A DNA stretch of 64,000 nucleotides, taken from contig CDROCS010000745.1 in assembly GCA_977020255.1 (NCBI GenBank), positions 682,001 to 746,000 on the forward strand. The letters are read 5' to 3'. Below are positions 1 through 22,835 of the stretch, one piece after another. Position numbers and translations under genes: made by a program. This DNA comes from Obrimoposthia wandeli (taxonomy: Eukaryota). How positions within the stretch are numbered: the stretch's first letter is position 1; each line of letters begins with the position of its first letter. The notes under the pieces are model-generated. The model saw only the letters and a list, made by a program, of their open reading frames with translations. It ran no database searches and was not told the DNA's origin.

Positions 1-1
1 A

Positions 2-142
2 TGTTTCCAATTGACGGAACGAACGAGCCAACCTCACGAAGTCAAACAAGGAATAAATGAAGCGATGTATTTGATCGAGAATGTATTACAGAGACGAATT
101 GACGAAAACGGAGGTTGGGCAAAATTAAGCGACTACGCTAAA
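2..142 (+). CDS. C-terminal part (alpha5/alpha6-BH2) of a Bcl-2-like domain; frame open to the window edge
   Basis: CFQLTERTSQPHEVKQGINEAMYLIENVLQRRIDENGGWAKLSDY resembles Bcl-xL C...[23 protein letters not shown] in motif and spacing. No stop upstream within the window; BH1 is not visible. Confidence 0.6.
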
Positions 143-244
143 ACCATTGTGGAAATGAATGAAGACGATGACGAACAATGTCATGAGAATCGTCAAAAGG
201 AAAATAAACAATACCGTCCGAAAGAGAGAAACAATCAACCAAAT

Positions 245-2100
245 ATGTCCACAACAATGATGATGATGATGTTAGTAATGTTTATGGGAATGCAACAGGC
301 ATCAGGATTGATAGCATATGACTGTAGCATACCAAAGATGGGACAAAAGTATTCACTGCTTGACAGCGAAGACTGTCCAGAATCACAACCGTCAAAACTA
401 GAAGTTCAAGGTGTTGAAAACTACTTTATGTATCAGGATGTTGATAAAGTACAAGTAGAAGTGAAAGAATGTTCAATCCATTCAAGTTATCACGAATTCT
501 ATTGTGGCCATAGAAGTTTTATGTCAGAAATCACACCTACCACACCGTACAAGGCACATAAGGTTTTGCCGAGAGATTGCGAAGACGCATTTCGAACGGG
601 AACAATAGAGGTAGACAAGAATTACAAACCTGAAGTAAAAATTGGAGTGAGACGATACGAAACAGTCACGAGAGTCGGACAACGATGGGCTGATGGATCT
701 TGTGACGGAGAAACAAAAAACGTGCGTGGAACCAAAGTATCTGAGTTAGTAATGGATGTAACTTACAAAATCGAATTAAAAACATGGACCGCCAATTTTG
801 ATAAAAAGACACAACTAATGATGAAGTATCCAGAATGTAAAATGACAGATACATCTTGTTTTACAGGTGAATCCACAATTGTGTATCACATAAATCCGAA
901 GCAATGCTCTTTAGTATTTTTGAAAGAGATTAGCTTTAATAAAATAAAAGGATTCCTGTATAATAAAGATGGAGAAGGGTTCCTGTATAATAAAGTAGGA
1001 AAAGGATTGCTAAATGAAACAAGACCAATTCCAATGACAAAAACACCTACACTGTTAATGGCAACATCAATAGAAGAAGGATTGATATTTATTAAAAAGA
1101 GAAACAAAGCGCGATGCGGAATGACTGTTAGTACTACAAACTATCCAGGAATAGTTTTGTCTAAAGAAGCAATAGCATTGGCAGAAACCAAGCTAAAACC
1201 AAAAGATATGCAGCTACACACGTATTTTAATAATAAAATTGATTTCTATTATCATAAAGGATTGATGCAGATGGAACAGTTATATCGGATGATGATCGAA
1301 AGAGATTGCCAGCTAAACAAAGAGATCGTAAGAACAAAATTAGCATTAGCTATTACGAATCCAGACATGGTAGCACCATTATTACCCTTGGATGAAGGAG
1401 TATTTGCTAAAACCATGGGAGAAGTATTGTATACTTACAAGTGTAATAAAGTAGAGGTACAGTTGAGAAAAACAGATCGATGTACGAGCGAATTGGCAGT
1501 AACGTATAATTTAAAAGATCTTTTTGTTGAACCAATCACGAGAATGTTACTTCCAAAAGACACTCCAACTAAAGAAATCAGCTGCTCTAATATAATGGCA
1601 CCTGAATATCAGATGACGAATAATCTATGGATAACGTTACCTGATCGGAAGCCAACGACAACCCCAGCGATGATAAGAATGACGAATCTTAAAGGTAAAA
1701 TGAAATTCCAAGCGGTGGAAAATATGGAGAACGCAGGATTGTACAATGAAAAAGATTTAAAAGCGGCGTGGAACGAAATAATGTTTCCAGTAAGAAGAGC
1801 CAGAGTACTTACGGAGATGGTACATCGAGCATTACCGCCAGGAGCGAGATATGCGAATTTCGATATGTTATTATCGCCAAGTCATTTCAAGGAAGCAGCA
1901 CATCAGACACTTAGAAAGATGTGGGGAAATTCCTTGTTTTAGGACAATTATTTTCGGGTATCATAGGTATTTATGTTATAATTAAATTTGTGCAGGTAAT
2001 TATAGCCCAGGTGTTGTCTACGTATAGTTTATACAGGATAACCGGAATCACCTGGCAACTTATAATTGGATGTTTTCCATTTTTAGCAAAATATCTAATG
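245..2100 (+). CDS. Env-like glycoprotein of the chuvirus (Jingchuvirales) / gB-like class III fusion type; ectodomain in ORF 11..1942, TM anchor in ORF 1921..7338
   Basis: Signal peptide MSTTMMMMMLVMFMGMQQASG, then LIAYDC..SLLDSEDC, DGSCDG, DCQLNKEIV..LAITNPD..GEVLYTYKCNKVEVQL, and WG(K)FLVLGQLFSGIIGIYVII TM after a -1 shift. These match the chuvirus glycoprotein pattern as I recall it. Confidence 0.8.
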
Positions 2101-5100
2101 CACCATCATCACGAGAACGAGTTGCGAGCCCTCAAGAAGGAACAACACCAAACGAGAACCATGATGCGAGAACCAAGAAACTATCGAGACGACAACGACG
2201 ACGATAATGATAGTCCAGGAGTATATGCAAAGATACCAGGAAAACCAAAGATTCCGTTACCAGACAAGGAAGAAGTAGCGTTAAACCTATATCCAATGAA
2301 GGAACTAAAGGAGGAAAAGGAAAAGTTCAAGAGAGGCATCTTAATGATAAGATGGCCTAAAGTGAGCTACAGTGAAATTCCACAAGCAGAGGAAAAAGAC
2401 AAAAAAGATAATTCCAGAAGAATTCTGAAGTCTAGGATATCCAATGAGAATCCAAATGCTCCACCACAAGTAGCAGTAACATTGAACGGAAGAGAATATC
2501 TTGCCGAAGTTGATACCGGATCAGCAGTATCAGTGCTAAGTAAAGAAATCTTGTCATCAAAAGAATTAAGAGAAGTATGTCCTAGAAAACAGACATTTGT
2601 TAACGTGAATGGTACAGATGTAGTGTCGGAAGGAACACTGAAATGTACATTGAATATCGATGGAAGAGCATTACAGTTAAATGCTAGAATATTCACAGAT
2701 TGCGGTAGTCCAGTCATGATTGGGATGGACGTAATACGAATGTTTGAAGGAATAATTATACTACCAAACAACAAGAATTATAAGAATGACAGTTCAGTGA
2801 GAGAGATAAAAATGTTGAGAGGACCTATAGTCGAAAAGGAAAAATGCACTACGTTCCGTATGGGAGGTTCGTACCCAGACAGAAAACAGGAAGCGCTAGC
2901 AAAGTCGATACTTCACTACAAAAATGTAAATTTCGGACCACAAGATACGACGAGGAGAAAAATAACATATGTAAATCTGTCAGAAAGGGATCCCATGAGA
3001 TTCGAGAGAAAGAGACGAAACATATTAGAACAGTACTATTCAAAAGGAATGGCACGTAAAATGGCAAGATCAGGTTTAGAAATGTTAAACGCAACAAGCA
3101 GTTATGGTCAGGAGATAGTAGTACGATGCGTATGGTGTAGAGTAAAGTTTAGAGAATGGGAACAGAATGAAAACCCAATGAGACGTCATAAAAGAGATGC
3201 ACCAAATTGTCCATTTCTTTTGAAACTGAAAACGTCAAACGTACCAGAAATCCAAACGGGAAAAGCACCCGATTTCGATTACAGTAACGGGATTCCAAAA
3301 GGAGAATCAGCTCTAATAACAGGAAGAGTAATAACGAATAGTCGAATTGAAGATATATTCGAAGTTATGCGAGAAGTGAACGAATGTGACGAACAATATC
3401 GAGAAGTAACTTTCGAAGATCCAAGACTTAAAAAATTGGCAAAAAAGGGACTTTTTGCTATAAAAAAGGATGGTAAAGACGTAATTAAATGCCACAAGTG
3501 TAAAAAAGAACGAATCATCGACAGATATACTCTTGAGCTACCTAAGAAAATTTTACATCATGAATTTTGCGAATTTTGTATTTTTAAAAACAAAATAAAG
3601 CAAAAAGAACAGAAAACCGAATGTATAATCGAATACCAGATCACACGGAAAGAGATTTTGGCTCAACAAGACACACCGGTAGTGTCATTCGTGAGAAGGT
3701 TATATCCAAAAGAAGCAGAAAGAATCAGAGAATTGGTAGAATTAAAAATAAAAACTACGCGAAACGGATACGGATCGATTTTTGAATTACTGCGAGATAA
3801 AGATGACAGTACAATTGAAACAAAAGAGAAAGAGTACATAAATGAACTAGAATACGTACTAGAAGATCCGGAATGCGCAGTTTGCATGGTCAACAAAATA
3901 GAAGTTGCCTTTCTACCATGCGGACATGTAAGAACATGTCGGAGATGTGCAAACGAAATGGTATCATGTCCAATTTGTCGAAGAATAATAGATCGACAAG
4001 TGAGAAACATTAGATTTCACTATCCAAACATAGGAAGTGGACTGACAGAGTGTAATAATTCGATAAATACAATATACCACATGGGAAACATAAATGGAGC
4101 ACAGCGACCAGCAGCTATCATTAGAGTAAATAATTTAAGAGTAAAAGCCTTAATTGATACAGGTGCTGTAGCTTCGATAGTAAGTGAAGACTGTTTGACA
4201 GAGGAACAGAAACGAACAATGGCAGAGCCGGATGAGTTCTTGGTATCGGTCAATGGAGACCCTGTTAAAGTGACGGGAATATTACCATGTACATTTATAA
4301 TTGGACGTAATACGATCACTATACCAGTTAGAATCATGAAAGAATGTCCTGAACCTACAATTTTAGGAATGGATGTACTATCACAACTTAAAGGGATAAG
4401 TATTGATTTACAAGATCCAAGATTGAAGGATAGCACATCAAACAGAAAAATAAACCAAATTGACGTAATTATAGAGAATCCTATAAAAATCGGTAAAAGA
4501 TCACAATTTCTCATTCAAGGTCACACATTATCAGAAGATAAAGGACCAGTTGTGTTCGAACCATCACGAGATTTCATAGAGAAATACGAATTACCAGTTG
4601 TGAGTACAGTATGCCTGATCGAAAACCACAAAATACCAGTTAGACTGATGAATACAACCAACAATGACATTCTATTATTGACATTCTATTATAGAGGAAT
4701 GAGGTTGGGAAAGATAGCACAGATGGAGAATCCCACCGTGTGTGCTATGAAACTCGATAAAGATACGAACGATTACGAAGAAATAGTAATCCAATCAGAA
4801 AGACTGACAACTAGAGAAAAGAAACAATTACTTGATCTAATACATAAATTTCCGAAAGTAATTGCAAAAAATCCATATGACATAGGAGAAACACCTGTCA
4901 TAAAACATACAATACCACTGACAGAAGACAAAGTAGTCAGAAGAAGACCATATCGAGTACCATTACAATTACAAGATGAAGTAAAAAGTCAGATTGAAGA
5001 TATGTCTAAAACAGGAGTAATTAGACCGAGTTTTTCGCCATTCTCAGCACCTGTGGTGTTGGTAAAAAAGAAGGATGGGAAAATGAGATTCTGTATAGAT

Positions 5101-7338
5101 TTCAGAGAACTGAACAAGATCACAAGAAAAGATGTGTATCCATTACCTAGAATCGAAGAGATGCTCGATAAATTGGGTAATTCAGATTATTTTACGACAT
5201 TGGATTTGCAGAGTGGATACTGGCAAATCGAGATAGAGGAAGAGGATAAACACAAAACAGCCTTTTCCTGCGGAGATGGATTATACGAATGCGAAAAAAT
5301 GCCATTCGGACTGACAGGAGCTCCAGCAACATTTCAGCGTTGCATGAATTTTGTACTCGCATCGTGTGCAAACACGATGGTTTATATCGATGACATAATA
5401 ATATTTTCGAAAACGTTCGAAGAACATTTAAAAAATCTTGAAGTTGTATTTAAAAGACTGGAAAATGATAAATTAAAAGTTAAACCTACAAAATGCGAAT
5501 GGGCTAAAGAGCGAGTAACATTTTTAGGACATATAGTATCGAAAGAAGGCATTCGACCTGATCCGGCAAAGATCGAGAAAGTAAAAGCGCATTTAGCACC
5601 AAAGACCGTTAAGGAGATACAAAGTTTTTTAGGTCTTGCGAATTATTATAGACGATTTGTTGAACATTTTTCAGATATAGCAACACCATTGAGAAAGTTG
5701 ACGAGAAAAGATGAGAAGTTCATATGGGGAGAAGAAGCCCAACAAGCGTTCGAGCATTTAAAAGAAAGACTGATAAAAGCACCAATATTAGCGTTTCCAG
5801 ATATAAACCGACAATTCATACTCATGACAGATGCAAGTAACTATGCTGTAGGAGCAGTATTGGGACAAGAGGATGACGAAGGAAGAGAACACGTCATTGC
5901 GTATGCAAGTAGAGGATTAAACAGAGCCGAAAGAGGATACTCTGTTATCGAAAAGGAATGTCTAGCCATAGTGTATTCATGTAGACAGTACAGACACTAT
6001 TTGCTAGGACAAAAAGTATTCCTGTATACAGATCACAAACCACTACAGTTCTTATATAAACATAGAGATGAGATGAGTAGATTAAACAGATGGTTTCTAA
6101 AATTGGCCGAATTCGATCTAGAAATCCGTTATAGAACCGGAAAGTCGAACGGCAACGCAGATTGTTTATCGAGATTGACAAATGTAGACGAGAAAGGAAA
6201 CATAATTCCAGAAGAAGATGAAACCAATGACCAAAAAGGAGAAGCAAATCTACTGACGATTTTGCTAAAGACGGGTAAAATAGACAAAGAGATCATCAAA
6301 GAACAGAAAGAAGATGAAGAACTGAGTCTAATTAAAGAATTGCTGGTGAAAGGAGATCTAAACGATGAAATGACGAAAAAATACTCGATAAAAGAAGGAA
6401 TCTTGTATATTGTCAATAATGTCGGAAAGATAGTAGTAGTAATTCCGAAGTCATTGAAAACAGCAGTGATGATCCAGTATCACGACGGAACACTAGGAGG
6501 ACATCTGTCAGGGCGAAAGACAATAGCCAGAATCAAAGAAAGGTACCATTGGGATGGTATGGAAGACGACATAAAACAATGGTGTAAACAATGTAAAGTA
6601 TGTTTAACCAGAAAAGACACCGGAACTCGTACTAAAGTTCCACTGAAACCAATGCCAGTTCCCTTGGCACCAATGGAATTCACAGCAATGGATATATTGG
6701 GACCATTGAGAGAATCAAGTAAAGGAAACAAGTACGTCATAGTATTTACAGACTATATGACGAGATGGGTAGAAGCATATCCCATGCAGAACCAGAAAGC
6801 TGAAACAATAGCACAAATCTTAGTGGAAGAGATAATATTTCGATATGGAGTGCCTAGAAAGTTGTTAACGGATCAAGGTAAGAACTTCACTGGAGAAGTC
6901 ATAAAAGCAGTATCGAAGATATTCGGAATCATGAAGTTACAAACTTCACCATATCACCCACAGACAGATGGTCTGGTAGAAAGGTTTAATAAAACTTTAT
7001 GTATGATGGTACAATCCTATTGCTCGGACAAGCAAGAGGATTGGGATAAATATTTACCTTCATGTTTATATGCTTACAGGAATTCAGTTCGAGAGGCGAC
7101 GGGTCACACACCATTCTATCTGATGTATCTCAGACAGAACAATATGCCGATGGATCTGGAGTGGACCGAGCCAACATCTCAGTACCTAGAAACTGAACAA
7201 TACATTGTCGTCATGAAGGAAAGGTTACAAGATGCTTGGACCAAAGCCGGATTGAAGTTGAAATTCAATCAAGAAGGTTACAAGGAACAATACGACAAAA
7301 AGCAAAACCACATGAATTTAGAGTCGGAGATCAAGTGA
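1921..7338 (+). CDS. pol: Polyprotein: env TM/tail - aspartic protease 1 - BIR - degenerate BIR - RING - aspartic protease 2 - RT - RNase H - integrase
   Basis: AEVDTGS (~2512); CVWC..WEQNENPMRRHKRDAPNCPF (BIR, ~3050-3220); CHKC..HHEFC (~3420-3580); CAVC..FLPCGHV.TC..C...CPICR (IAP-type RING, ~3870-3995); LIDTGA (~4156); LDLQSGYWQI, MPFGL, YIDD; TDASNYAVGAVL; HDGTLGGH..CKQC; AMDILGP, TDQG, GLVERFN. Confidence 0.95.
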   Translation: MGKFLVLGQLFSGIIGIYVIIKFVQVIIAQVLSTYSLYRITGITWQLIIGCFPFLAKYLMHHHHENELRALKKEQHQTRTMMREPRNYRDDNDDDNDSPGVYAKIPGKPKIPLPDKEEVALNLYPMKELKEEKEKFKRGILMIRWPKVSYSEIPQAEEKDKKDNSRRILKSRISNENPNAPPQVAVTLNGREYLAEVDTGSAVSVLSKEILSSKELREVCPRKQTFVNVNGTDVVSEGTLKCTLNIDGRALQLNARIFTDCGSPVMIGMDVIRMFEGIIILPNNKNYKNDSSVREIKMLRGPIVEKEKCTTFRMGGSYPDRKQEALAKSILHYKNVNFGPQDTTRRKITYVNLSERDPMRFERKRRNILEQYYSKGMARKMARSGLEMLNATSSYGQEIVVRCVWCRVKFREWEQNENPMRRHKRDAPNCPFLLKLKTSNVPEIQTGKAPDFDYSNGIPKGESALITGRVITNSRIEDIFEVMREVNECDEQYREVTFEDPRLKKLAKKGLFAIKKDGKDVIKCHKCKKERIIDRYTLELPKKILHHEFCEFCIFKNKIKQKEQKTECIIEYQITRKEILAQQDTPVVSFVRRLYPKEAERIRELVELKIKTTRNGYGSIFELLRDKDDSTIETKEKEYINELEYVLEDPECAVCMVNKIEVAFLPCGHVRTCRRCANEMVSCPICRRIIDRQVRNIRFHYPNIGSGLTECNNSINTIYHMGNINGAQRPAAIIRVNNLRVKALIDTGAVASIVSEDCLTEEQKRTMAEPDEFLVSVNGDPVKVTGILPCTFIIGRNTITIPVRIMKECPEPTILGMDVLSQLKGISIDLQDPRLKDSTSNRKINQIDVIIENPIKIGKRSQFLIQGHTLSEDKGPVVFEPSRDFIEKYELPVVSTVCLIENHKIPVRLMNTTNNDILLLTFYYRGMRLGKIAQMENPTVCAMKLDKDTNDYEEIVIQSERLTTREKKQLLDLIHKFPKVIAKNPYDIGETPVIKHTIPLTEDKVVRRRPYRVPLQLQDEVKSQIEDMSKTGVIRPSFSPFSAPVVLVKKKDGKMRFCIDFRELNKITRKDVYPLPRIEEMLDKLGNSDYFTTLDLQSGYWQIEIEEEDKHKTAFSCGDGLYECEKMPFGLTGAPATFQRCMNFVLASCANTMVYIDDIIIFSKTFEEHLKNLEVVFKRLENDKLKVKPTKCEWAKERVTFLGHIVSKEGIRPDPAKIEKVKAHLAPKTVKEIQSFLGLANYYRRFVEHFSDIATPLRKLTRKDEKFIWGEEAQQAFEHLKERLIKAPILAFPDINRQFILMTDASNYAVGAVLGQEDDEGREHVIAYASRGLNRAERGYSVIEKECLAIVYSCRQYRHYLLGQKVFLYTDHKPLQFLYKHRDEMSRLNRWFLKLAEFDLEIRYRTGKSNGNADCLSRLTNVDEKGNIIPEEDETNDQKGEANLLTILLKTGKIDKEIIKEQKEDEELSLIKELLVKGDLNDEMTKKYSIKEGILYIVNNVGKIVVVIPKSLKTAVMIQYHDGTLGGHLSGRKTIARIKERYHWDGMEDDIKQWCKQCKVCLTRKDTGTRTKVPLKPMPVPLAPMEFTAMDILGPLRESSKGNKYVIVFTDYMTRWVEAYPMQNQKAETIAQILVEEIIFRYGVPRKLLTDQGKNFTGEVIKAVSKIFGIMKLQTSPYHPQTDGLVERFNKTLCMMVQSYCSDKQEDWDKYLPSCLYAYRNSVREATGHTPFYLMYLRQNNMPMDLEWTEPTSQYLETEQYIVVMKERLQDAWTKAGLKLKFNQEGYKEQYDKKQNHMNLESEIK

Positions 7339-7907
7339 TGATATTTTATCCAGTCATCGAACCAGGTCTATCGTTTAAACTTCATAGACCATACAAAGGA
7401 CCATACAAGGTGATCCAGACAACCTCAACAAATTTGAAAGTAATCAACGAGGAGAATCGGAACAAGGAGCCGATGATTGTACATGCAAATCGATGCAAAT
7501 TAGTACCAAATAAAGATAATGCGTCACGATATGAGTTAAGATCACAGAAATCGAAATCGAATACCAATACCATTAAACTTACACGAATGGTAAGTGATCG
7601 GAACTACATAAACATGATGACGAGTGGTAGCGAGGAAAAACCAGCGAGAATTGGTATGCTCAGAATGAAGTACCAAGAGGAAAAGGAAGTAATCCGACAC
7701 ATCGCACCACAAGAGATATTAGAAGAAGACGAAGAGATAATAGTTGTTTTCGAAAAAACACAACCAACAGATGTGGCGAAAGAAGTCATTGTGAAAGATG
7801 CACTGACAAACGAATTTCTGTGCGAACTTAGAGTGTCATACTACGACGGAAATACATTAGTCCAGCACTTTATCAAAATTCCAATGTGTTTACGACTGAG
7901 AAAGTGA
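7236..7907 (+). CDS. Integrase C-terminal (GPY/F-type) region plus first TIG/IPT-like repeat; frameshifted continuation of pol
   Basis: FRVGDQVMI..KLHRPYKGPYKVI..VHANRCK is a typical Gypsy IN C-terminus. Adding one A to the A5 run at ~7287-7291 joins it to pol as YDKKAKPHEF. Confidence 0.85.
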   Translation: MDQSRIEVEIQSRRLQGTIRQKAKPHEFRVGDQVMIFYPVIEPGLSFKLHRPYKGPYKVIQTTSTNLKVINEENRNKEPMIVHANRCKLVPNKDNASRYELRSQKSKSNTNTIKLTRMVSDRNYINMMTSGSEEKPARIGMLRMKYQEEKEVIRHIAPQEILEEDEEIIVVFEKTQPTDVAKEVIVKDALTNEFLCELRVSYYDGNTLVQHFIKIPMCLRLRK

Positions 7908-10900
7908 TAATCGAAATCACATTGACACCAAACATAGTTGCATGGCAGAACTATGACAGTACTGAAGCAGGACTAGCCAGTCAGGAAGAAAAAGAACCGG
8001 CCGGTGGTCACATACTGCATGGTACACCAAAAAGACTCAAACAAGAATACCACGATGTAATAATGGTATTACGTAATTCACATGGGAAAAGAGATATCAT
8101 GAGAGTCCATTTAATCGACGCTGACACTGAAAAGATAATTTGTCAGATGGACACCAAATACTTTGATGGAAAGACAATTGTATGTTGTATACCAGAATCT
8201 CACCGGTTAGACACGGATCAAACGGAAGTATCTGTAAGGTTGAGCGTAATAGAAGGATTCCATTCGCCAACCCATCCGGAAGTGACTAACAATAAAATCA
8301 TCAAAGCAACGGCAGAGTTACGCATTGACAGCGGATACCGGAAGTGGGAAGCTAAAAATAAAAAACCACAAAGAATCAATATGATCCGAGAACAAGTAAC
8401 AACTTCAAACCAGCCAAAATATCATGCCGAAATAGTATCATCCGCACCAAGTGTAATTACATCGATAAACGACGAAATTATAATTTTACTAAAAAATCGA
8501 TGGCCGTCATCAACTGAGATACGAGTAAACTTAATTAATTATGCGAAGACACCGATATCTAAGCTGAATGTTACCTATTTTGATGGATTGTCCATCATGG
8601 GTAAATTGGAAACAATTGTCATGTGCTATGGAGCACAGTTCCAAGTTGAGATACTTAAAGATAGTGTGATACCGTATCCGATTCACAAATATGAAGGGGA
8701 AATCAATCCAATTATTCTAACCCCTTCATTAATTTCAGTCCAGACAGACATACCAGAATACCCTTCGAGCGAGTCTAGTGAAGACAGCGAACCGGAAAGT
8801 AACGATACAGAATCAACAGAATCCGAAGATAACATAATAGAGCGATTCGGAAGAACCATGGAGGTTGAATTCGCTAAAGAGAGCAGAAAAAGACAAAACA
8901 TAGAATTCGTGAAACAGAATATACAAGAAAGACGAATTAAATCTGCAGAAGAGACCGAGTCGGAAGAAGACTCAACAAAGGAACAGACATCAGAGACAAA
9001 GATGAATATCTCTCCAGCAATACGAATGCTGAGAGGAAAGAAACTGGCGAAACTATCCAACATCGACGAACAGATAGAGAAGAGATTAGAAAGACTAAAA
9101 CTTGAAGAGTCAGAATTAATGCCACCAATGAGTGAGATCATTCCAGGTAAGTTATACCTCGGAAATGTGGAGGATGCAACAGATGAAAAGAAACTGTTGG
9201 AACAAGGGATAACATATGTGATCAACGTTACAATGAATCACAAATCGCAATATCAGACGATCAGAGCTATGACATTAAGAGTAAAAGACTCAATGGACGC
9301 TAATCTTCTCGAATGGTTCGTAGAAACAAACGAAATACTTCACAGAGAACTCCGGAACCGAGGAAAAGTGTTGGTACATTGTCAGAAAGGAATTTCTCGA
9401 TCAGCAACTCTAGTATTAGCATACCTAATAAAGACTAGACGAATGCAGGTACTAGAAGCGTTAAAATACCTACAGGAGAGAAGAAGTATTGCAAACCCAA
9501 ATCTTAATTTTTTGGGGCAGTTGGCAAATTACCAACTTCTGTTGCAAGAACAAAGACGGATGGACGACATTCCTGAGGACCCAAAGGAAAAGAATTTCCT
9601 CCAAGCATTATCATTGACCGGGTTATTCTTAGCCGGAGTCGACAAAATTACACAAATAATGCCAAAAGTATTTTTATGTCATCCAGGAGATATAGATACT
9701 GCTGGATTAAAATTCCATAGTATCAACCGAGTAATCAACATTGTTGAAGTCGGAAACGAGATAATTAGTCTGTGTCAAAATACTGAAGATGACACCACTC
9801 GATACATACATGCTTCCAATCGAGAAATAAACGATGCACAACAACATCTGACGAAATTGACTCAAACCATCCAAGCTGAAGTCACAGAAGGAAACGGCGT
9901 TCTGATATATCAGAAAAAAGGTACAATGTTAGCGCCTACCATAGGTGTATCCTTGTTGGTAGAGTACCATGGTCACACGCCAGAAGAAGCGATGGTCTAC
10001 ATAAAACAGAATAGACCAAATACGGAATTCAAACCGTTACTCGTTCGAGAAATAGAGAAATACACCGAAAAGAGGAAGCAACAACGAGAAATAAATGAAG
10101 CTACAACAACAGTGCCCAGCTTTCAATACCAAAGATTGTTAGCAATAGGCTTGTTAAGTTGTCTAATGCCGATAACGGGAGCACAGGAGATAGGCTCCAA
10201 CCACGGAAATAGTTCCTGGTTCAACGAAATCCACAATTACACCATACAGTACCATACACCGGCACTGATGATGCTATTAGTGTTGTTAGGACTAATTGAT
10301 GTGTGGATCATCCGAAAATGTCTTCGATCTATGAGAACCGACAGTAAAAGATTTCAGTTTGTAAAGATGAAAAGACCAAATGGACCAACGAACAAAGTGC
10401 TTGTGTATCTAGACGAAAGGATCGAAGACAACATAGTAAATGAAGCGATATTTTACCCACAAAACAGAATACTGAATCAATTTCGAATAGATTATGAAGC
10501 TGACCGACAGCACACACTTGACCGAATATCAACAACATTCGCCGGATGCAAGCGGAGAAAACGAGTTGTAAAGGAAATACAAAAAGATGCTGATACAAAA
10601 GGACCAACGTATATATTCAACGGCGATGTCATCAAAACACGTGAGTATGGAAGTAAGAGAGTGATAATTGAAACAATGGAAGGACATAAAACATGCTTGT
10701 CCGCCAAAAATGGATTCGGAAAGTTGACGATACAAGGTAAACCAGTACAGTTGATTATCGGACGAGATGGAATCGAGGAGATGTCAAAACAACGACAGAC
10801 AACAAAACGAACCAATCAGAAACAGATATCTCTCAAACGATTGATAATTAAAACCCTTTGCAAAAGGTCAGTCAAGGCCCTGTGCACCGTTGCACAAGGA

Positions 10901-12799
10901 TTGATCTATGGAGTAGTAATTGGATTGGTACTGCAAGCCATGCCAACCAGTAAAGCCGAATTGATGACACTATCCGAATATAATTTACATTTGAGAAATC
11001 TAGACAACACCCTAGAAATAATCAAGACATCCCACAGTAGAGCCGTGATGATCATGTGTGTAAAAGGATGTCCAGGACGAATGTGTATAGTCCCAGCGAC
11101 CGAAATGATAACACTTAATGGACATTATGGAGTTAGTGTTGTCACATGTGAAGACTACATATTTGGACAAACTAAAATAGTGCTTCTCAGTGACATGTCC
11201 AACCAAAGTGCACACAAATTTAAAATATTAACCATCAAGAGTAAAGGAATACCAGCAGTACGTTACGGTATTCTAGAATTGGTTAATCCAATACTCGCAC
11301 TGATCATTGGATTTATAATATTAATATTGCTCATCTTGTTTTGTTGTACAAAGTTAGAGTTGAGATCAAAAAAGAAACGGCATGATCTCGCAAGACGAAC
11401 AGGTCAAATGAACTTACAAAAATTCAACACAATTATACCAAGTCCACCATTTCTAGATGAACCAGCACCAGAATACCAGCCAACGATATATGAACACATC
11501 GAGGAAAGACCGTACTATATGAGTAATTTGACTTGTTTCATTGAAGTTCCTGAGTTTAGGAATCGAACGATCATAGGAATCATGCTGATCATACAAATCA
11601 CCACTACCAAGGCTAGTTATGAGATCATGATCAGTAAATGGAGACAAGACGTAATACGGGCAGTATACATAGAAATCCCCCTACTAAAAACAAATCACGT
11701 AGTAGACATTCATCTACAGACGTCAGCAACTGACAATATCGATCAGAAATTGTATGTCATCCGACAGGTCAGAATAAAAATCGACCAAAATACACCCGTT
11801 TACAATTTAATATTATTGTATCATGAAAGAGTGTTATACCTACGGATAACAATATCAAAGAGGAAGCGGATTATCCAAAGTATCCGAACAAAGTCATTAA
11901 TATTGCCTAGAGATGAGCGCATCTGGAAAATTGTCGACAGGATTATGATCACAGGCAGACGACGTAAAACCGTATGGAATTCCGTTAGAATATTTTTCAG
12001 ATTGTTAGAAACTGACAGGGTGACAGTAATGTGTCCCAACCCAGATGGCGGAATCAGATTCGAAATCCAAAGCCAAATGTTAGTACCACATTTTAACACA
12101 GAATGTCTGTGTAATCGAATTGCCAGTAATACTACAGAGACCTCGACCATAATCATGATAATAACAGGTGAAATATTCTACATAACTCTAAGATACCAGA
12201 ACCGTCGATTTCGTAAATCCGGTATAAGTATCAAACCCAGGAAAATCATTCCCAAAAGACCAATCCTAGTCAAAAAGAAGGCAAAGGTAATCGAAAGTAA
12301 ACGCCATTCCAAAAAACCGACAGTGATCAGAACAAAGACAGAAGCGAAAGAAAAAGAGCTAAATCCCAGAAACCAAAGTACAATTATTAAGAGGACAAGA
12401 GTGAGGGGAACGATCCCACTAGATCCCAAACATCATTTCCAATCCAAAATAATAATACCTGTTCCATCAGAAACAAAACACCCAAATCCCCGAATTTTTA
12501 GAAAATCGGACATAATACATGGAAACCGATCAAAACCCATGGAAATGTCATTCGAACCGACAAACAACAAAATGAAGTACGATTATAAATCATCAGACAG
12601 CGGAATAACAGCGGTCAATGCCCTAATTGGAATGGCCGTAGTGTCAACAGCAGTGGTTTTATTGACAATCGTGTGCGTAAAAGGCAGTCAAGTATGCCCA
12701 GGAATACGACGAAAATGCGAAGGATTGCGATGCTGTGACACACCCACCATGGAGGAAGTGGAATTGCGACTCCTACCTCCGCCTCCCATCAAGATATGA
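7886..12799 (+). CDS. Accessory polyprotein: TIG/IPT-like repeats, acidic linker, dual-specificity phosphatase, pseudo-phosphatase, degenerate protease-like domain, three signal-peptide/TM units
   Basis: 1637-aa ORF. VLVHCQKGISRSATLVLAYLI (9377-9403) and NPNLNFLGQL form the MKP/DSP signature; a second DSP-like copy lacks HCx5R; several hydrophobic segments of 17-20 aa. Confidence 0.88.
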   Translation: MFTTEKVIIEITLTPNIVAWQNYDSTEAGLASQEEKEPAGGHILHGTPKRLKQEYHDVIMVLRNSHGKRDIMRVHLIDADTEKIICQMDTKYFDGKTIVCCIPESHRLDTDQTEVSVRLSVIEGFHSPTHPEVTNNKIIKATAELRIDSGYRKWEAKNKKPQRINMIREQVTTSNQPKYHAEIVSSAPSVITSINDEIIILLKNRWPSSTEIRVNLINYAKTPISKLNVTYFDGLSIMGKLETIVMCYGAQFQVEILKDSVIPYPIHKYEGEINPIILTPSLISVQTDIPEYPSSESSEDSEPESNDTESTESEDNIIERFGRTMEVEFAKESRKRQNIEFVKQNIQERRIKSAEETESEEDSTKEQTSETKMNISPAIRMLRGKKLAKLSNIDEQIEKRLERLKLEESELMPPMSEIIPGKLYLGNVEDATDEKKLLEQGITYVINVTMNHKSQYQTIRAMTLRVKDSMDANLLEWFVETNEILHRELRNRGKVLVHCQKGISRSATLVLAYLIKTRRMQVLEALKYLQERRSIANPNLNFLGQLANYQLLLQEQRRMDDIPEDPKEKNFLQALSLTGLFLAGVDKITQIMPKVFLCHPGDIDTAGLKFHSINRVINIVEVGNEIISLCQNTEDDTTRYIHASNREINDAQQHLTKLTQTIQAEVTEGNGVLIYQKKGTMLAPTIGVSLLVEYHGHTPEEAMVYIKQNRPNTEFKPLLVREIEKYTEKRKQQREINEATTTVPSFQYQRLLAIGLLSCLMPITGAQEIGSNHGNSSWFNEIHNYTIQYHTPALMMLLVLLGLIDVWIIRKCLRSMRTDSKRFQFVKMKRPNGPTNKVLVYLDERIEDNIVNEAIFYPQNRILNQFRIDYEADRQHTLDRISTTFAGCKRRKRVVKEIQKDADTKGPTYIFNGDVIKTREYGSKRVIIETMEGHKTCLSAKNGFGKLTIQGKPVQLIIGRDGIEEMSKQRQTTKRTNQKQISLKRLIIKTLCKRSVKALCTVAQGLIYGVVIGLVLQAMPTSKAELMTLSEYNLHLRNLDNTLEIIKTSHSRAVMIMCVKGCPGRMCIVPATEMITLNGHYGVSVVTCEDYIFGQTKIVLLSDMSNQSAHKFKILTIKSKGIPAVRYGILELVNPILALIIGFIILILLILFCCTKLELRSKKKRHDLARRTGQMNLQKFNTIIPSPPFLDEPAPEYQPTIYEHIEERPYYMSNLTCFIEVPEFRNRTIIGIMLIIQITTTKASYEIMISKWRQDVIRAVYIEIPLLKTNHVVDIHLQTSATDNIDQKLYVIRQVRIKIDQNTPVYNLILLYHERVLYLRITISKRKRIIQSIRTKSLILPRDERIWKIVDRIMITGRRRKTVWNSVRIFFRLLETDRVTVMCPNPDGGIRFEIQSQMLVPHFNTECLCNRIASNTTETSTIIMIITGEIFYITLRYQNRRFRKSGISIKPRKIIPKRPILVKKKAKVIESKRHSKKPTVIRTKTEAKEKELNPRNQSTIIKRTRVRGTIPLDPKHHFQSKIIIPVPSETKHPNPRIFRKSDIIHGNRSKPMEMSFEPTNNKMKYDYKSSDSGITAVNALIGMAVVSTAVVLLTIVCVKGSQVCPGIRRKCEGLRCCDTPTMEEVELRLLPPPPIKI

Positions 12800-14459: not shown

Positions 14460-15598
14460 TCCTTTCCTCCCTTCTTTCCTTCCTAATCCTTGGTTATGCA
14501 TGTAGTTTTGTGTATAGATAATAATGTATAGTCTGAGACTTGCTCCAAATTATACATTATGTTTCCCACTAAAAACCGGGATTTTGAGAAATTTTGTTTT
14601 GGGCATGTTTGTTGAAGTTGAATGATTGATTTTGTAGGGATGAACCTAAAATCAACAGCCAGAGGCTTGTTTAAGTAAAATCGATACGTTCCGGGGACGT
14701 AACTTTTTTGGAACCCCCGAGGTATGTTAGGTTTGAGAATTAAGAAATTTAAATATTTTAGTCGATTAAATACTAAAATAAAAATCCTTGAAAGCAAGGT
14801 TGAAAATTAAATTAAATATTAATTTTAGTTTTAGAATTGAAATTAGTGGAATTTAGGGAAAAAATTAGGAGGACCACGAAGGTCGTGTATAATGTGAAAT
14901 GTATAAAAGTTAGATTAATTAACCCAAAAGTGCAACAAAAAGACACATTAACTAAGCAAAGAAGAAAAAAGGGAACAATATCGAACGTCAATCAAAATCG
15001 AACGTCAATCAAGGTAAGCACATTTTCGTGCAGTTAAATTGGAGTGTTTAAACTTAATTTTCAGCTGCCGCAAAAGACTCCAGTTGAAACCGCTGTCGAC
15101 ATTGCTGACTGACAGACAGGAGTTGCAGAATCGACTATAAAAGTCGTCGACAAGAAAACGAAATACACAACCGGAAAAAGCAATATCCCAATCTACCGAG
15201 AAATAGACCACAAAAAACCAAGGAAAACCAACATTGTCCCTAGCAGCAACCAGGTGGTTTTGTGATAGACTTGGAGATTTAATTATTGATTTAGCAAACT
15301 AACTGATTGGGAAATTCTCACGTTTCGTCACACAAGACTTAAAGATCAATCTATCACGGATTTGGGCAACGTCGTAACAGCGACATACAAATCGATTCTA
15401 TTCAACCGAACTCGATCTATCACGGAGCAGAGCTTGTGAACCAGTTCAATTGTTGTTCCAGTCAGCACTATATCAGCGAATTTTCATTCGGCAATTCAAA
15501 TTCAGTCAGCCGATCGGTTTTTGTGTTCGATCTCAGTATATTCCGGAACGCTTCAGGATATCTCAACCTCGAGACAAAAAACGTAAGAGAGATTACTA

Positions 15599-15857
15599 AA
15601 AATTGTCTCAATTGTCCTAAAGTTATCATAAAGTTTGACACTAAAATTGTCTAAATTGTCCTAAAGTTGTCATAAAGTTTGACACTAAAATTGTCTAAAT
15701 TGTCCTAAAGTTGTCATAAAGTTTGACACTAAAATTGTCTAAATTGTCCTAAAGTTGTCATAAAGTTTGACACTAAAATTGTCTAAATTGTCCTAAAGTT
15801 GTCATAAAGTTTGACACTAAAATTGTCTAAATTGTCCTAAAGTTGTCATAAAGTTTG
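15599..15857 (+). repeat. 44-bp tandem array (~6 copies) in LTR
   Basis: Unit AAAATTGTCTAAATTGTCCTAAAGTTGTCATAAAGTTTGACACT, nearly exact copies. Confidence 0.95.
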
Positions 15858-16205
15858 AAGAGAAGTTTTGTCTAAATTGACATAAAAGTTTGAAGAGAAG
15901 TTTTTGTCTAAATTGCCATAAAAGTTTGAAGAGAAGTTTTGTCTAAAATTGACATAAAAGTTTGAAGAGAAGTTTTTGTCTAAATTGCCATAAAAGTTTG
16001 AAGAGAAGTTTTGTCTAAAATTGCCATAAAAGTTTGAAGAGAAGTTTTTGTCTAAATTGCCATAAAAGTTTGAAGAGAAGTTTTGTCTAAATTGCCATAA
16101 AAGTTTGAAGAGAAGTTTTTGTCTAAATTGCCATAAAAGTTTGAAGAGAAGTTTTTGTCTAAATTGCCATAAAAGTTTGAAGAGAAGTTTTGTCTAAATT
16201 GCCAT
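15851..16205 (+). repeat. 35-37-bp tandem array (~9-10 copies) in LTR
   Basis: Unit approx. AAAGTTTGAAGAGAAGTTTT(T)GTCTAAATTGCCATA, with homopolymer length variation. Confidence 0.95.
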
Positions 16206-16576
16206 AGTTTTGGTATAAAGATAAAAGTTTGCCATTAAAGTTAAATTGGGAATTAAAGTTAGAGTTTGACATAAAAGTCACATTAATTTGAAAATCTATA
16301 ACTTGAGCTTATTCGCGAGTTAGAGGAACGACTCTAAAAACTCGATCACCCTTAACATAAAATCGATACGTGGTTCATCCCCACTTGTTGTAGAGACTTA
16401 CAGAAGTCTTAGGAGTTTTTACTATACTTTTTAGAAAATACGTACATAAACGTATTGTTGTGTTTTAGTTTCGTGAATTACAAATAAACAATTTCCTACA
16501 TTAGAACAAGTTGTTTTTTGCACCCTTCAGAATAAGAGACATCAAATCAAATACCTTCAGATAGTACAAGAGATAG

Positions 16577-18136
16577 GCAACCATAACACTAAGTAGGCCA
16601 CGACCAACTTTAAGACCTGCTTCTAATCGAACTCACGTTGGGGCCCTCCGCACTCAAGAGGCTCTATACCAAGTTTCGTATAGAAACCCCAACAAAATAA
16701 CTAAATACATTAGTACAAACGAAGTACCAACAGATGAAAAATTAAGAAAACATTTAAAAATTCACGAATCACGATACAAATATAGTAATGAAATATTATA
16801 TTATTTAAATGACAAAAATCTATATTCACTAGTTATTCCTAAAGAAATTCAGTGTCAATTACTTCTTCAATATCATAATGGAGCCCTAGGAGGACATTTA
16901 TCATCAAAAAAGACACATTCACGATTAAATTTAAAATACTATTGGATTGACATGAAAGAAGATGTAAAAAATTGGTGTAAAACATGTGAAATATGTCTTA
17001 AACGGAAAAATACTTTACGTACCACAAAAATACCTTTAAAGCCAATACCTTATTCATCAGCCCCTATGGAAACTGTTGCCATGGATGTAATGGGACCATT
17101 ACCTGAAACACCCCGAGGAAATCGATATATAATAGTATTTTCTGATTATTTTACAAGATGGCCAGAGGCTTTTCCAACACATGATCATAAGGCTGAAACC
17201 ATCGTGAAGGTTTTAGTCGAAAAAATTATTTTTACTTTCGGTGCACCCCGAAAATTATTAACCGACAAAGGTCCTGAATTTATAAATAATGTATTAGCGT
17301 CAATAGCTGAAATTTTTCACATAAAAAAGATCAATACAACACCATATCACCCTCAAACTGACGGGTTAGTAGAAAGATTTAATAGAACCCTCGAAGATAT
17401 GATGGCATCATACACAAACAACAACCAAACAGATTGGGATTTACACATACCTCCATGCCTTTTTGCATATAGAACATCAGTACATACATCCACAGGAGAA
17501 ACACCTTTTTATCTTATGTTCCTCAGAGATTCTCAAATGCCTATTGACCTAACATTACTACAACCTACTACACAATATTTAGAAATACCTGAATATAAAA
17601 TAGAAATTAGAGAAAGAATAAAACTAGCATTCGAAAAAGCTAAACTATTTGTAAAAAACATACAAGAAAATTACAAAGAATATTATGATAGAAGAACTAA
17701 GCCATCAAATATAAAAAGCGGAAGTAAAGTGATGATTCACAATCCACAAATTAATGTAGGATTGTCTCACAAATTATCAAAACCATACAAAGGACCATAT
17801 ACAGTCATTAGTACCAACGGAACCAACATAACAGCTAAACTAGATAATGAACCAAAATCAAAAGAAATAAGAGCACATATAAACAGATGTCGAGAAATAC
17901 CTGAGGAGAATACAAAAGTAAAAAGTCACAAATATAACTTAAGATCAACTAATGATAATACAGTTCTACAAATGTTGACAATAAAAAACTCACAAAAACA
18001 AAATAAAACTATTTTGAGTCATCAAACCAGAAATACAATAAAAATATCAATAAAAGAAATTGGTAAAATAATGATGTTATTGATAATATATTTTATAATA
18101 AAATATAACCTACTGAAAGTAAAGCAACAAACATAA
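16577..18136 (+). CDS. Gypsy integrase (HHCC, core, C-terminal) of element B; frame open from 16577, upstream of the tracked ATG at 16952
   Basis: YHNGALGGHLSSKKT..CKTCEIC; AMDVMGPL; TDKGPEF; GLVERFN; KPYKGPYTVI. Confidence 0.92.
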   Translation, partial: ATITLSRPRPTLRPASNRTHVGALRTQEALYQVSYRNPNKITKYISTNEVPTDEKLRKHLKIHESRYKYSNEILYYLNDKNLYSLVIPKEIQCQLLLQYHNGALGGHLSSKKTHSRLNLKYYWIDMKEDVKNWCKTCEICLKRKNTLRTTKIPLKPIPYSSAPMETVAMDVMGPLPETPRGNRYIIVFSDYFTRWPEAFPTHDHKAETIVKVLVEKIIFTFGAPRKLLTDKGPEFINNVLASIAEIFHIKKINTTPYHPQTDGLVERFNRTLEDMMASYTNNNQTDWDLHIPPCLFAYRTSVHTSTGETPFYLMFLRDSQMPIDLTLLQPTTQYLEIPEYKIEIRERIKLAFEKAKLFVKNIQENYKEYYDRRTKPSNIKSGSKVMIHNPQINVGLSHKLSKPYKGPYTVISTNGTNITAKLDNEPKSKEIRAHINRCREIPEENTKVKSHKYNLRSTNDNTVLQMLTIKNSQKQNKTILSHQTRNTIKISIKEIGKIMMLLIIYFIIKYNLLKVKQQT

Positions 18137-18838
18137 ATGACAATCAATCAATCATACAACAACAAACTAATAAAATTCGACTCAACAACTCATCTCATAA
18201 AAAATTTTGGATTAATAACAATAATACCTGAAATCACATCAATAAAGTTAAAAATTTCTCTTCTTACAAACAAAACAGGAAATGTGCAAATCACACAAAC
18301 AGATAGAAAACAAAATATAATTATTTCAGGAATAAAATCACAAAAATATACAATACCATTTTTAAGAACAGAAACACAATATAAAATAAGAATTAAGTCG
18401 AAATTAAAAAATATAACACTCTATGAAAGAATTATAGAAACTCACATATACCTAGCATCAATATTAAAAACAACAGCAAAATATATATCAAAACATAAAA
18501 TAATGATAAAATGGGAATTTCAACTAAAAATAGATGACTTAGATAAAGCCCTCATTAGAATTAGATATAGAGGACATAATGCTAATTTTTGGAAAGACTC
18601 AGAAAAACAATTAGAAAATACACAAACTAAAACAAATTTAACCATAGAAAATATAAGATATCCAGAGAAAATAATAATAGACAATAGAGAATGCGTAATC
18701 ACTAATAAACCAATAATGTACAGACAATGGAGTCAAAAGTTTGAAAGTTATAAAAATCTAACAAAATTAACAATTTTAGGAAATAAGATATCCAAACTAT
18801 ATCAACCTACAATTTTTGTGGTCGTTGGTCAGCAGTAA
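18137..18838 (+). CDS. Post-integrase accessory ORF with two fibronectin-III-like beta-sandwich segments
   Basis: YTIPFLRTETQYKIRIKS and HKIMIKWE..IRIRYRGHNANFW..LTIENI resemble FN3 motifs. It is in frame with integrase, immediately after TAA. Confidence 0.45.
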   Translation: MTINQSYNNKLIKFDSTTHLIKNFGLITIIPEITSIKLKISLLTNKTGNVQITQTDRKQNIIISGIKSQKYTIPFLRTETQYKIRIKSKLKNITLYERIIETHIYLASILKTTAKYISKHKIMIKWEFQLKIDDLDKALIRIRYRGHNANFWKDSEKQLENTQTKTNLTIENIRYPEKIIIDNRECVITNKPIMYRQWSQKFESYKNLTKLTILGNKISKLYQPTIFVVVGQQ

Positions 18839-19465
18839 AAATTAAGAAATATGTTAAAGAAATAACCACAAAACAATTGCTACATACCACAACATTTACA
18901 TCAAAAATTTACAGAGTTACAAATCAAGTTGAAATTACGGAAAAAATAAGAATTAAATTAAAATTAAAAACAACAGAAATAATATCCTATAAATCATTTA
19001 ATGAAAGTTTAAAAATGCACTATGGTAAACAAGAACATTCAAGGAATGAAGATAAAAAAGAACTTATAATAATAGTTATAGTAATCGAAATAATTACATT
19101 TATAAATCAAATATCATGGAAAATGTTAATTTTAAAAACATACAAAAATGATAGAAACAAAACAACGAAAACACTTTTGTGGGCCCCCAGGCCCTTTTAC
19201 TATTTATATTATTCAGAATTATCCATAAATACTGTAATAGAAAATAGAAAAAGAAATATAACACAATAATCAAATCCTTTTTAAAATAAAACCGTTTAAG
19301 TAACAAAAAATGTTAGTACTATTATGTAAATCTAAATTAATTAGGAAATAGAATAAAAATTTGATATATATATATTTTTAAAGACGATTTAATGAAATAA
19401 TATTAAAATAAAATCACCAGGAAACGCATCCTGAAATTTAATAATGGTTATTTTTAGATATAAAA

Positions 19466-19861
19466 ATGAACAGATTGGCAAAAGTTTGTAAAAAATGCAA
19501 AAAATTAGAGAAAAAGATTCGAGATGTTTCCAGACAGCATGACGACTACTATATAAAGATCACAACTCAAAATGAATCACTGAAACAGTTAATAAAACAA
19601 AGTGTGGAAGAAAAATTGAATAATGATTTAACAATTGACGAACTAGAAGGGAGATTGACACATAGTTTTGGCAGAATAGACAATTTAATACAACAAACTT
19701 TAAGTCAACGATCAACTATAGCCTCATTAAGAAGACAAATGATGACCTATAGCGACATGATAAACTTTTATATGACCATTAATCCTACTATCCCAACTAA
19801 TACAACACTTGATGATGGATATGACTCGGATATGAACATTGGTGAACAAAATTCTGGTTAA
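19466..19861 (+). CDS. Small coiled-coil protein of unknown function (element B accessory)
   Basis: 131-aa ATG ORF in AT-rich context with heptad-like composition; no family recognised. Confidence 0.4.
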   Translation: MNRLAKVCKKCKKLEKKIRDVSRQHDDYYIKITTQNESLKQLIKQSVEEKLNNDLTIDELEGRLTHSFGRIDNLIQQTLSQRSTIASLRRQMMTYSDMINFYMTINPTIPTNTTLDDGYDSDMNIGEQNSG

Positions 19862-20028
19862 ACTATAACCATACATCCTTCTTTTGTACAAATTGTCTAA
19901 CTTTTGTTAATAAGTTAATTTTCATGACAAATCCCACATACTGCATGGATAAGACTGATATTTTTATAACTTTAAGACTGTGAAATAATTATATTATTTT
20001 ATTCAACTTACAAATTGATTAAAGCAGA

Positions 20029-21197
20029 ATGGATAACAATCACCTGGATACGACTCCAGACCAGCTCACTCGGTCAGATCAAACAAAAAGCACAGCAAAA
20101 ATAGAAAGAGGAAAAACGGAAAATATGCCAGAAAGGTGGTTTTTAGCAAAATTCCTGTATCAAAAGATGCGTCAGTTTAGCATTGCATACTTTAGAAACA
20201 ACGGAGGAAGAAAAATGTTTTCAAATCAAACATTTCTTCCTAATAAGTTAAAAATTACCACAGAAGAAAGAACTAGCGCACTTATTTTTTCCAATGAAAA
20301 AAGACCAACCCATATGGCTCTCAGTGAAATATTCCCCAACATTAATTGTGAAAAAATAGATATTCACGTGGCACTAGGAGTAGCCCATTTAAAAACCAAA
20401 TCAGATAAGACATTAAACTTTCTGATGATAGGAAATCACACCTACACCTTACAAGCAGCTCAATTAGAAAATCAATATAGCATAAAAATAGGAAGAGGAC
20501 CAAATCTATTATTTATAGAAAAAATAAGAAAAGCAGAAGAACCTCAACAAATAGCCCTTTTTGAATTAAAAAACGCACAGAAACCAGCAATTTTATTCCT
20601 CGATTGCGAAATGGTGATATCAGTAGATAAACAGCCAGTTTTAGCAAGTGTTTCTATAATAAATTACATAGGTAACGTAATTATAGATACACTGTGCGTA
20701 ACTAGAGACAGAGTAAGAAATTACGTTACTAGAATAACTGGACTGTCAGATAGAAAGTTACAAGGATGTAGAGATGCTGATGAAGTAATTGAGGAAGTAA
20801 AAACATTGTGTATGGTAACATCATCGTAGGTGTGGGACTAACAAACGATTTAAAAGCTTTACGCCTACAGAAATGGATGTTATTCAACATTGTTGATTTA
20901 GGAATATCCAAAAGCATAAAATCAGAACTAAATCACAATCACCCAAATATTGGACTCGCCAACATGGTTCGGAAATACTTAAATATATAAACACAAAAAG
21001 GAGTCCACACTAGCATGGAAGATGCAAATCACACCCGAAAAATTTTCATAATGAAGGAGGAAATGTTGAATAGAGAGTTTGATTTGACCGAGGTGATGAA
21101 TCCACCATCTAGCGAGAACAACCCCTGTTCATCGTTCTCACATAAGACCGGAAACTCGGAGTCCGGTACACAAAACTCCCCGATTTTGTTGGATTAA
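20029..21197 (+). pseudogene. DEDDh 3'-5' exonuclease (REX4/ISG20-like) with N-terminal extension; frameshift ~20810 and stop at 20988
   Basis: FLDCEMV..LASVSII..YVTRITGL / GNIIVGVGLTNDLKAL..IVDLG..GLANMVRKYLNI*TQKGVHTSMEDA correspond to ExoI, ExoII and ExoIII motifs. Confidence 0.82.
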
Positions 21198-21489
21198 GGT
21201 AGTATTGTTATTATTTTATTTTGTTTTCATTCTTGTCTAAATTTTTAACGATATTTAACTTGACATGATTGTGATTAATAAAACATTGATCAGTTATAAC
21301 ATACAAACAACACTAGGTAACAATAGAAACAAGACAAAATAGTTTTACTAATAATTAAAATAAAAATTATAATTCTGAGAACAGAGACTTTTATGACCCG
21401 GAGGATTGTTGGGAAAATATATTAGCTATTTGTTTTAAAAAGAAAAATAAAAATATAAAAATTTTTAAAAAAATAAAAGGTAAAAAGGA

Positions 21490-22430: not shown

Positions 22431-22571
22431 TTAAGGCAGCTAATTTTACAAAATATGCAGAATTATTACTATTATTGCTTTTCAGAATATAACAACAAAA
22501 ATGCAATCTACCTATGATTATTAATTTGATTTTGCCAGAAATTAACCAATTTTTAGAAAGCTGAAAACACA

Positions 22572-22722
22572 GAATATTTATTTTATCATATATTTATCCG
22601 CAAAGAATATTTATTTTATCATATTGATATCCGCAAAGAATATTTATTTTATCATATTGATATCCGCAAAGAATATTTATCCGCAAAGAATATTTATTTT
22701 ATCATATTGTTATCCGCAAAGA
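22572..22722. repeat. 33-bp tandem array (~5 copies, some partial)
   Basis: Unit ATATTTATTTTATCATATTGATATCCGCAAAGA. Confidence 0.85.
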
Positions 22723-22835
22723 AAATTTATTGACAAGATTGGATAAGTGTTTGTGAATATATATTGGACTTTGCTTCTTCTCGTTTATTAACATAAGACC
22801 AAGGAAGGAAAGGTATTTTAACCAACACACCACTA

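Follow-up and report, generated by a model that had tools for sequence, protein, structure and literature searches.

A chuvirus-type fusion glycoprotein with a late-domain-like tail motif between gag and pol of a giant Ty3/gypsy element

Organization of the element and its insertion site

We analysed a 64,000-nucleotide stretch of DNA (contig CDROCS010000745.1, positions 682,001 to 746,000, forward strand), referred to here as the window. It begins inside a Ty3/gypsy long terminal repeat (LTR) retrotransposon with an envelope glycoprotein gene (env) located between gag and pol. By sequence and predicted fold, the glycoprotein is a genuine chuvirus-type class III fusogen. Very probably, the element is a Burro-like giant belonging to the known group of Ty3/gypsy elements with GAG-ENV-POL order and a gB-type env; its host is most likely a flatworm. 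How its env would act is proposed below.

The element is 23,727 bp in total, with an internal part of 19,521 bp. It encodes Gag, a zinc knuckle, a weak ubiquitin-like match, a Bcl-2 fold, env, protease 1, BIR, RING and protease 2. These are followed by reverse transcriptase (RT), RNase H, integrase, a phosphatase, four membrane segments and three RING open reading frames (ORFs). In the C76 copy, a frame of 5,301 codons, interrupted by a single stop, runs from Gag past the integrase and the phosphatase. The 5’ LTR is located upstream of the window (L032:2968-5203). The 3’ LTR (14725..16694), identified by LTR comparison, has TG...CA ends and internal tandem repeats. A 4-bp target-site duplication was found, with its right copy at 16695-16698. 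Host tRNA-Met genes match the primer site, among them tandem arrays with a spacing of ~284 bp on C2252 and C2837. All features described here are on the + strand unless noted.

The window opens in the C-terminal part of the Bcl-2-fold domain (1..160), which starts ~265 nt before the window and is frame-broken there. When this region was modelled from the C454 copy, the top Foldseek matches were all of the Bcl-2 family (VIA Z 12.9, root-mean-square deviation 3.3, 147 aligned). Sequence searches with it returned nothing significant, and only the fold search revealed Bcl-2. The genome holds 15 Bcl-2 matches, and the 10 retrieved show no link to the element. The ubiquitin-like match before Bcl-2 is weak (PF00240, E 0.12, Pfam, C454 copy).

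Aspartyl protease 1 (2470..2733, PF13650) is located downstream of env. Next is an IAP-like module (3049..3996) composed of a BIR (3049-3219, PF00653) and a RING (3865-3996, PF13920), whose best PDB matches are cIAP/XIAP/NAIP chains. Aspartyl protease 2 (4102..4395, PF00077, PF13975) follows. Pfam matches to RT, RNase H and integrase span 5062..7499, with a frame break near 7300 in the window copy. The best PDB match of RT-RNase H is Ty3 RT (E 5.8e-96), followed by a caulimovirus (2e-54), and no Pao marker domains are among the Pfam matches of the element. The Gypsy assignment made in the first-pass annotation of this DNA is thus confirmed.

The post-integrase part of the polyprotein (7832..12799; PF00782, hydropathy) contains the phosphatase, a weaker stretch resembling dual-specificity phosphatases and four transmembrane segments. 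The dual-specificity phosphatase is located at 9152-9535, its HCX5R motif is intact, and DUSP10/4/1 are its best PDB matches. This MAPK-phosphatase-like domain is in frame with RT-integrase in the C76 copy. It is absent from the four relatives with long post-integrase parts (P0010, P0013, P0020 and P0158). Three small RING-finger ORFs (12923-13222, 13283-13588 and 13924-14268; Pfam, the third below the cut-off) precede the 3’ LTR.

The insertion site is within the integrase gene of an element from another gag-env-pol family (L031, L032:1-2967 and window 16695-22794). The right half of this outer element, assigned from Pfam and LTR/protein comparison, occupies 16695..22794. Its env and RT are 40-43% and ~64% identical to those of the inner element, respectively. 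It has one protease and an LTR of at least 3.3 kb, inside which an ORF at 20023-20829 shows a weak DEDDh exonuclease match (PF00929, E 0.026).

Fold, relatives and tail motif of the glycoprotein

The env region starts with an internal, signal-peptide-like hydrophobic segment (245..307; translation, hydropathy) that ends in an A-x-G site, where it is presumably cleaved. The first-pass annotation started env at 245. An ATG there opens the signal-like segment, but it is an internal Met, because the polyprotein starts ~3.7 kb upstream of the window. The ectodomain (about 308..1918) contains 14 Cys and one N-glycan sequon. A hydrophobic membrane-proximal and transmembrane region follows at about 1930..2100 (hydropathy peak 2.3; PF24664 positions 541-632). 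Near the end of the cytoplasmic tail, the translation contains LYPMKEL (2287..2307), a late-domain-like motif of the LYPx3L form.

The ectodomain matches PF24664 (Monjiviricetes_fusion) in Pfam with an E-value of 1.1e-77. Its AF2 model, built from a 73-row alignment, has a pLDDT of 92.8. In Foldseek searches, the best solved match of this model is herpesvirus gB (E 4e-13, about 12% identity), and, among viral models, chu-like glycoproteins score best (E 8e-39, TM-score 0.67-0.76, 16-20% identity). A single-sequence search of the PDB with the ectodomain returned no match, and a profile search reached gB at an E-value of 0.02 only. The first-pass annotation had described a full, Cys-bearing ectodomain of a chuvirus-type class III fusogen and proposed its comparison with gB. 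The profile match, the gB-like model and the chu-like glycoproteins as best structural matches all bear it out.

A wide search for env relatives returned 1,163 representatives, of which the best 150 were listed; word-indexed protein searches returned 1 and 2 relatives. Env is followed by a protease in 11 of the 17 relatives scanned, five of these with RT. The env-protease order is common to 12 relatives and to the outer element. Env identity to the other env-before-pol elements is 27-43%. Two relatives, P0158 and P0011, carry many protease copies in one polyprotein. P0158 has eight D[TS]G motifs and six Pfam protease stretches, together with ankyrins and C2H2 fingers. P0013 is a protein labelled as coming from a Flavobacteriaceae genome; it is probably a binning contaminant, because the sequence is a retroelement polyprotein.

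The tail motif is conserved beyond the window element. Among 12 env-protease polyproteins, YP is found in 11 env tails (3.96 expected from shuffles) and YPx(1-3)L in seven (1.15 expected). Two observations count against a late-domain reading: the strict form LYPx(1-3)L is found in only three tails (0.11 expected), and the tail of P0018 has no YP. The outer element has YPDL at the equivalent tail position. We also analysed stand-alone relatives (P0030-P0156), unnamed sequences in which viral and endogenous ones are mixed; 91 of 93 have a tail. YPx(1-3)L is present in 30 of the 91 (6.8 expected), [LIMV]YP in 47 (5.8 expected), P[TS]AP in 16 (0.8 expected) and PPxY in eight (2.7 expected). Controls are near chance, with counts of 2 and 1 for reversed motifs and of 5, 10, 0 and 2 in ectodomain segments of equal length. 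Since the sequences are related, these counts show conservation and not independent events. The late-domain idea of the first-pass annotation thus held up against shuffled, reversed and ectodomain controls, at the level of sequence.

We take the YPxL-type and P[TS]AP tail motifs to be ALIX and TSG101 motifs. The first 1,310 residues of the C454 copy, its Gag part, contain no such late-domain motifs. This distribution suggests that the envelope itself recruits ESCRT. The portion of PMC6394706 available supports the ALIX/TSG101 identity of the motifs; the late domains there are in other ORFs, not in G. No report of a late domain or ESCRT motif in this glycoprotein family was found in the literature searched, which lacks most subscription papers. 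The conserved late-domain-like tail motif may be new.

Retroviral proteases cut aromatic-Pro bonds, so the tail Tyr-Pro could instead be a cleavage site of the element’s own protease, or an endocytosis signal, rather than an ESCRT motif. The full late-domain pattern is kept in fewer tails (7 of 12) than YP (11 of 12), and YP also precedes protease 2 in the window element. However, stand-alone relatives, which have no protease, carry the same motif at a median of 16 residues from the C-terminus. In these, L/I/V/M precedes and L/I/V follows YP, and P[TS]AP is also enriched. Before 15 later proteases, YP is found three times and neither YPx(1-3)L nor LYPx(1-3)L is found. We consider a cleavage site or endocytosis signal unlikely.

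A late domain in env suggests the following mechanism. The internal signal segment would thread the ectodomain into the endoplasmic reticulum, leaving Gag and Pol in the cytosol. Signal peptidase would free the N-terminus of env, and the signal segment would remain as a tail anchor of Bcl-2. The element’s protease would free the env tail ~15-20 residues after LYPMKEL, releasing Pol. LYPMKEL would then bind ALIX and help enveloped particles bud; env trimers with exposed late domains would recruit ESCRT and bud around Gag cores. A role in budding is proposed for the env motif because Gag contains no such motif.

The main rival to env-driven budding is a cellular or antiviral role. Env would no longer make infectious particles and would be kept for fusion, membrane traffic or blocking related viruses, in an intracellular element whose anti-apoptotic cargo pays its way. 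An env expressed in frame is produced in the same molar amount as Gag and Pol, which is not the case in retroviruses; this suits such a role. So does the Bcl-2, IAP, phosphatase and RING cargo, and Burro1 BIR-RING protects stem cells (as cited in the portion of PMC13465017 available). On the other hand, relatives only 27-43% identical still have every part, from signal segment and full ectodomain to anchor and tail motif, and the compact, cargo-free relative P0021 keeps the same order. Such a role is possible, and we regard it as the less probable course.

Extending env-driven budding further, we tentatively propose that chuvirus-type glycoproteins carry their own C-terminal ESCRT late domains, which were brought with env into gag-env-pol gypsy elements. 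On this view, the element would be a giant retrovirus that is enveloped and actively spreading, and its host a flatworm, possibly a marine one that is not among the known Burro hosts. Env, not Gag, would drive its budding, the signal segment would double as the Bcl-2 anchor, and the captured MAPK phosphatase would damp host stress signalling. This combination is doubtful as a whole. How chu-like viruses and gB-type retroelements bud is a question to which the tail motif, conserved across the glycoprotein family, suggests a testable answer.

Reading frame, copy number and host

Unlike most copies, the window copy has a frame break between the ectodomain and the anchor. ORF comparison placed it at 1915..1942, in a mononucleotide run near 1920-1930. 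The ectodomain is in the ORF at 2-1942, which stops, and the anchor, tail and Pol are in the ORF at 1915-7338. Three more breaks affect the window copy: one ~20 nt upstream of the window, and others near 7300 and 7860. A transmembrane anchor and tail running directly on from the ectodomain, as the first-pass annotation described, is therefore not what this copy encodes. Its claim that env and protease 1 are in the same polyprotein holds for the family, most copies of which are in frame, but not for the broken window copy. In the C454 copy, for example, a single frame extends from Gag through env to RNase H.

We searched the whole assembly for the motif pair flanking the break. Of 4,965 junction matches, 629 (12.7%) have the broken spacing of the window copy; among the first 100 listed, 88 keep one frame. 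In a tree of 60 loci (30 selected for similarity to the broken frame, 30 by Pfam score), 27 broken copies are interspersed with six open ones and are not monophyletic. These loci contain 277 other frame-breaking indels. The sole contig of an independent sequencing run that spans the junction keeps the frame. Run contigs undercount one-base run differences, and the integrase break shows a similarly low share, so no share of broken copies was derived from them.

The break in the window copy is likely a slippage mutation or an assembly error, not design. Weighing on the other side, 12.7% of the matches are broken at the junction, compared to 2-6% at A5/A6 runs, so error alone may not explain the break, and no copy examined is wholly free of breaks. 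The shared spacing in 629 of 4,965 matches could also point to a regulated frameshift variant that makes a secreted ectodomain and a little full-length protein. The site in the broken variant resembles what we take to be a slippery heptamer. In contrast, most copies are in frame, as are the relatives and the independent contig across the site. In the tree of 60 loci, broken copies do not separate from open ones, and the 277 other indels indicate an indel-rich assembly. No stable RNA structure was found downstream of the break (z -0.82). A regulated variant is very improbable, and a programmed frameshift was rejected because there is no downstream structure and the broken copies form no clade.

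The family multiplied recently. The junction motif pair occurs 4,965 times in the assembly. Counted as full-length elements, these ~5,000 near-identical matches would make up no more than about 9% of it. In the non-tandem parts of the LTR pair, 830 of 830 and 479 of 480 sites are identical; the insertion is therefore very recent. Env appears to be under purifying selection, judged by a ratio of nonsynonymous to synonymous variation (pN/pS) of 0.17 (30 older copies compared to one reference); this value is biased, as the copies were picked by Pfam score and share one reference, and the bias weakens the case for constraint. Such an abundant family with identical LTR pairs is a natural system for the question of infectious particles, which the available portion of PMC6431247 leaves open. 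The same system is suited to asking what the apoptosis and MAPK cargo does.

The host is likely a flatworm, judged by its mitochondrial code and the known range of such elements. The mitochondrial code with AAA as Asn and ATA as Ile is used by flatworms (rhabditophoran) and echinoderms. In a multicopy cox1, AAA aligns with Asn at five of eight positions and at none with Lys; all 10 ATA codons align with Ile/Val/Leu or Thr, none with Met. The element is also present on a contig with a like-scoring cox1 copy. The use of code 9 by echinoderms as well counts against this assignment; the known range of such elements makes a flatworm the likelier host. The assembly is mixed: besides three full-length 18S types of 88-96% identity, it contains numerous cox1 genes of bacteria and the mitochondrion of a second animal, which uses the common invertebrate code. 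Pieces of the element, mostly 95-99% alike, also occur in a marine metagenome from a different study, a hint that the host may be marine.

Three further features in the window were observed on the - strand. A 387-codon ORF that ends in Cys/His pairs is located at 55223-56386, an isolated inverted BIR-RING fragment, 88% identical, at 59291-59753, and an intronless ubiquitin-hydrolase ORF (PF00443, E 2.5e-20) at 61656-62921.

Origin of env and comparison with known elements

The first-pass annotation proposed an independent capture of a chuvirus glycoprotein by the Gypsy lineage. We built a tree of G from 122 of 151 sequences; 29, including P0009 and P0014, were dropped by a length filter. The nine env-before-protease relatives that the tree retains all fall into a single clade with the window env, on a long stem. 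This clade has 13 tips and a support of 0.988, and consists of the nine proteins, the window env and three fragments. RT and env identities co-vary (rho 0.73, 21 pairs among seven elements, the pairs not being independent); the RT and env trees differ in the placement of the window’s family. The tree has no named viral tips, and thus the donor virus family is not fixed. These comparisons, together with the pN/pS value, indicate an env that is old in a gag-env-pol gypsy lineage, not a fresh capture, and that is still constrained.

An independent and recent capture by the window’s gypsy lineage would fit the chu-like virus glycoproteins being the best structural matches. It would also fit the available portion of PMC13524379, where POL does not unite the GAG-ENV-POL elements in a single clade, which implies several origins across phyla. 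However, named viral glycoproteins are only 16-20% identical to the window env, compared to 27-43% for the env of env-before-pol elements. The single clade of 13 tips (support 0.988) and the co-variation of RT and env (rho 0.73 over 21 non-independent pairs) also argue against it. A recent capture is largely refuted and retains only a slight chance.

The env-before-pol order, regarded as unusual by the first-pass annotation, is already described, in section 7 of PMC6431247 and in PMC13524379. The comparisons below use the available portions of the papers cited. PMC6431247 reports Burro, in which env is in frame between gag and pol of planarian elements and matches mononegaviral fusion proteins. 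Like Burro/GYPSM1 of dugesiid planarians, the window family has a huge single ORF, Gag, zinc knuckle, Bcl-2, env, protease, BIR, Pol and thousands of copies. Its env is in frame between Bcl-2 and protease, it has BIR plus RING (B-IAP), and the C76 copy provides the single ORF of about 5,000 residues. Unlike Burro, the window element has one knuckle and two proteases that flank the IAP module. Its post-integrase phosphatase, membrane segments and RING ORFs are not named for Burro in section 7 of PMC6431247. No report of a phosphatase in planarian gypsy elements was found in the literature searched, from which most subscription papers are missing.

Several points weigh against the likeness to Burro. 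The window element is 23.7 kb, compared to >30 kb for Burro, and the MATH_TRAF and ankyrin domains of Burro have no Pfam match in it. The likeness itself is based on a published description and not on sequence comparison. For the dUTPase-like domain that Burro has between protease and RT, Pfam gave no match, and for its ubiquitin/SUMO-like domain before Bcl-2 only the weak PF00240 match. Burro hosts belong to Dugesiidae or Geoplanidae. The D. tigrina element is likewise without MATH in ORF1 (PMC6431247). As the size and the MATH/ankyrin features fail, the element is filed as Burro-like and not as Burro.

GAG-ENV-POL gypsy elements from Nematoda, Bryozoa and Platyhelminthes are described in PMC13524379, which lists nine from flatworms and ten from bryozoans; their env is gB-type and resembles the G of Chuviridae. 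The window family shares with these the Ty3/gypsy Pol, the gB-type env before pol, multiple copies, LTRs and a primer site. It has the gag-env-pol order, a gB-like env with signal segment and anchor, the Ty3/gypsy order of protease, RT, RNase H and integrase, TG..CA LTRs, the 4-bp duplication and a tRNA primer site. The survey excluded LTR distances >14 kb. Its main text does not mention late domain, ESCRT, polyprotein or in-frame, and the portion available does not deal with cargo domains.

Anakin, a mosquito BEL/Pao element with a chuvirus G (PMC7642597, PMC10084718), shows the capture of the same glycoprotein family by an LTR element, but its Pol is Pao, whereas the window element is gypsy and lacks the Pao-type Pol with G after integrase. 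The Pao-linked relative P0032 has DUF5641 before G and G after integrase. It is 24% identical to the window env and is outside the clade, which agrees with the separation from Pao-linked glycoproteins made in the first-pass annotation. In arthropods, PMC10084718 saw no clear case of capture by gypsy elements, a result superseded by PMC13524379. Jingchuvirales G and herpesvirus gB have the class III fold in common with the window env, which is embedded in a retroelement polyprotein. Because the env-before-pol arrangement is already published, the element adds an example of it rather than a principle.

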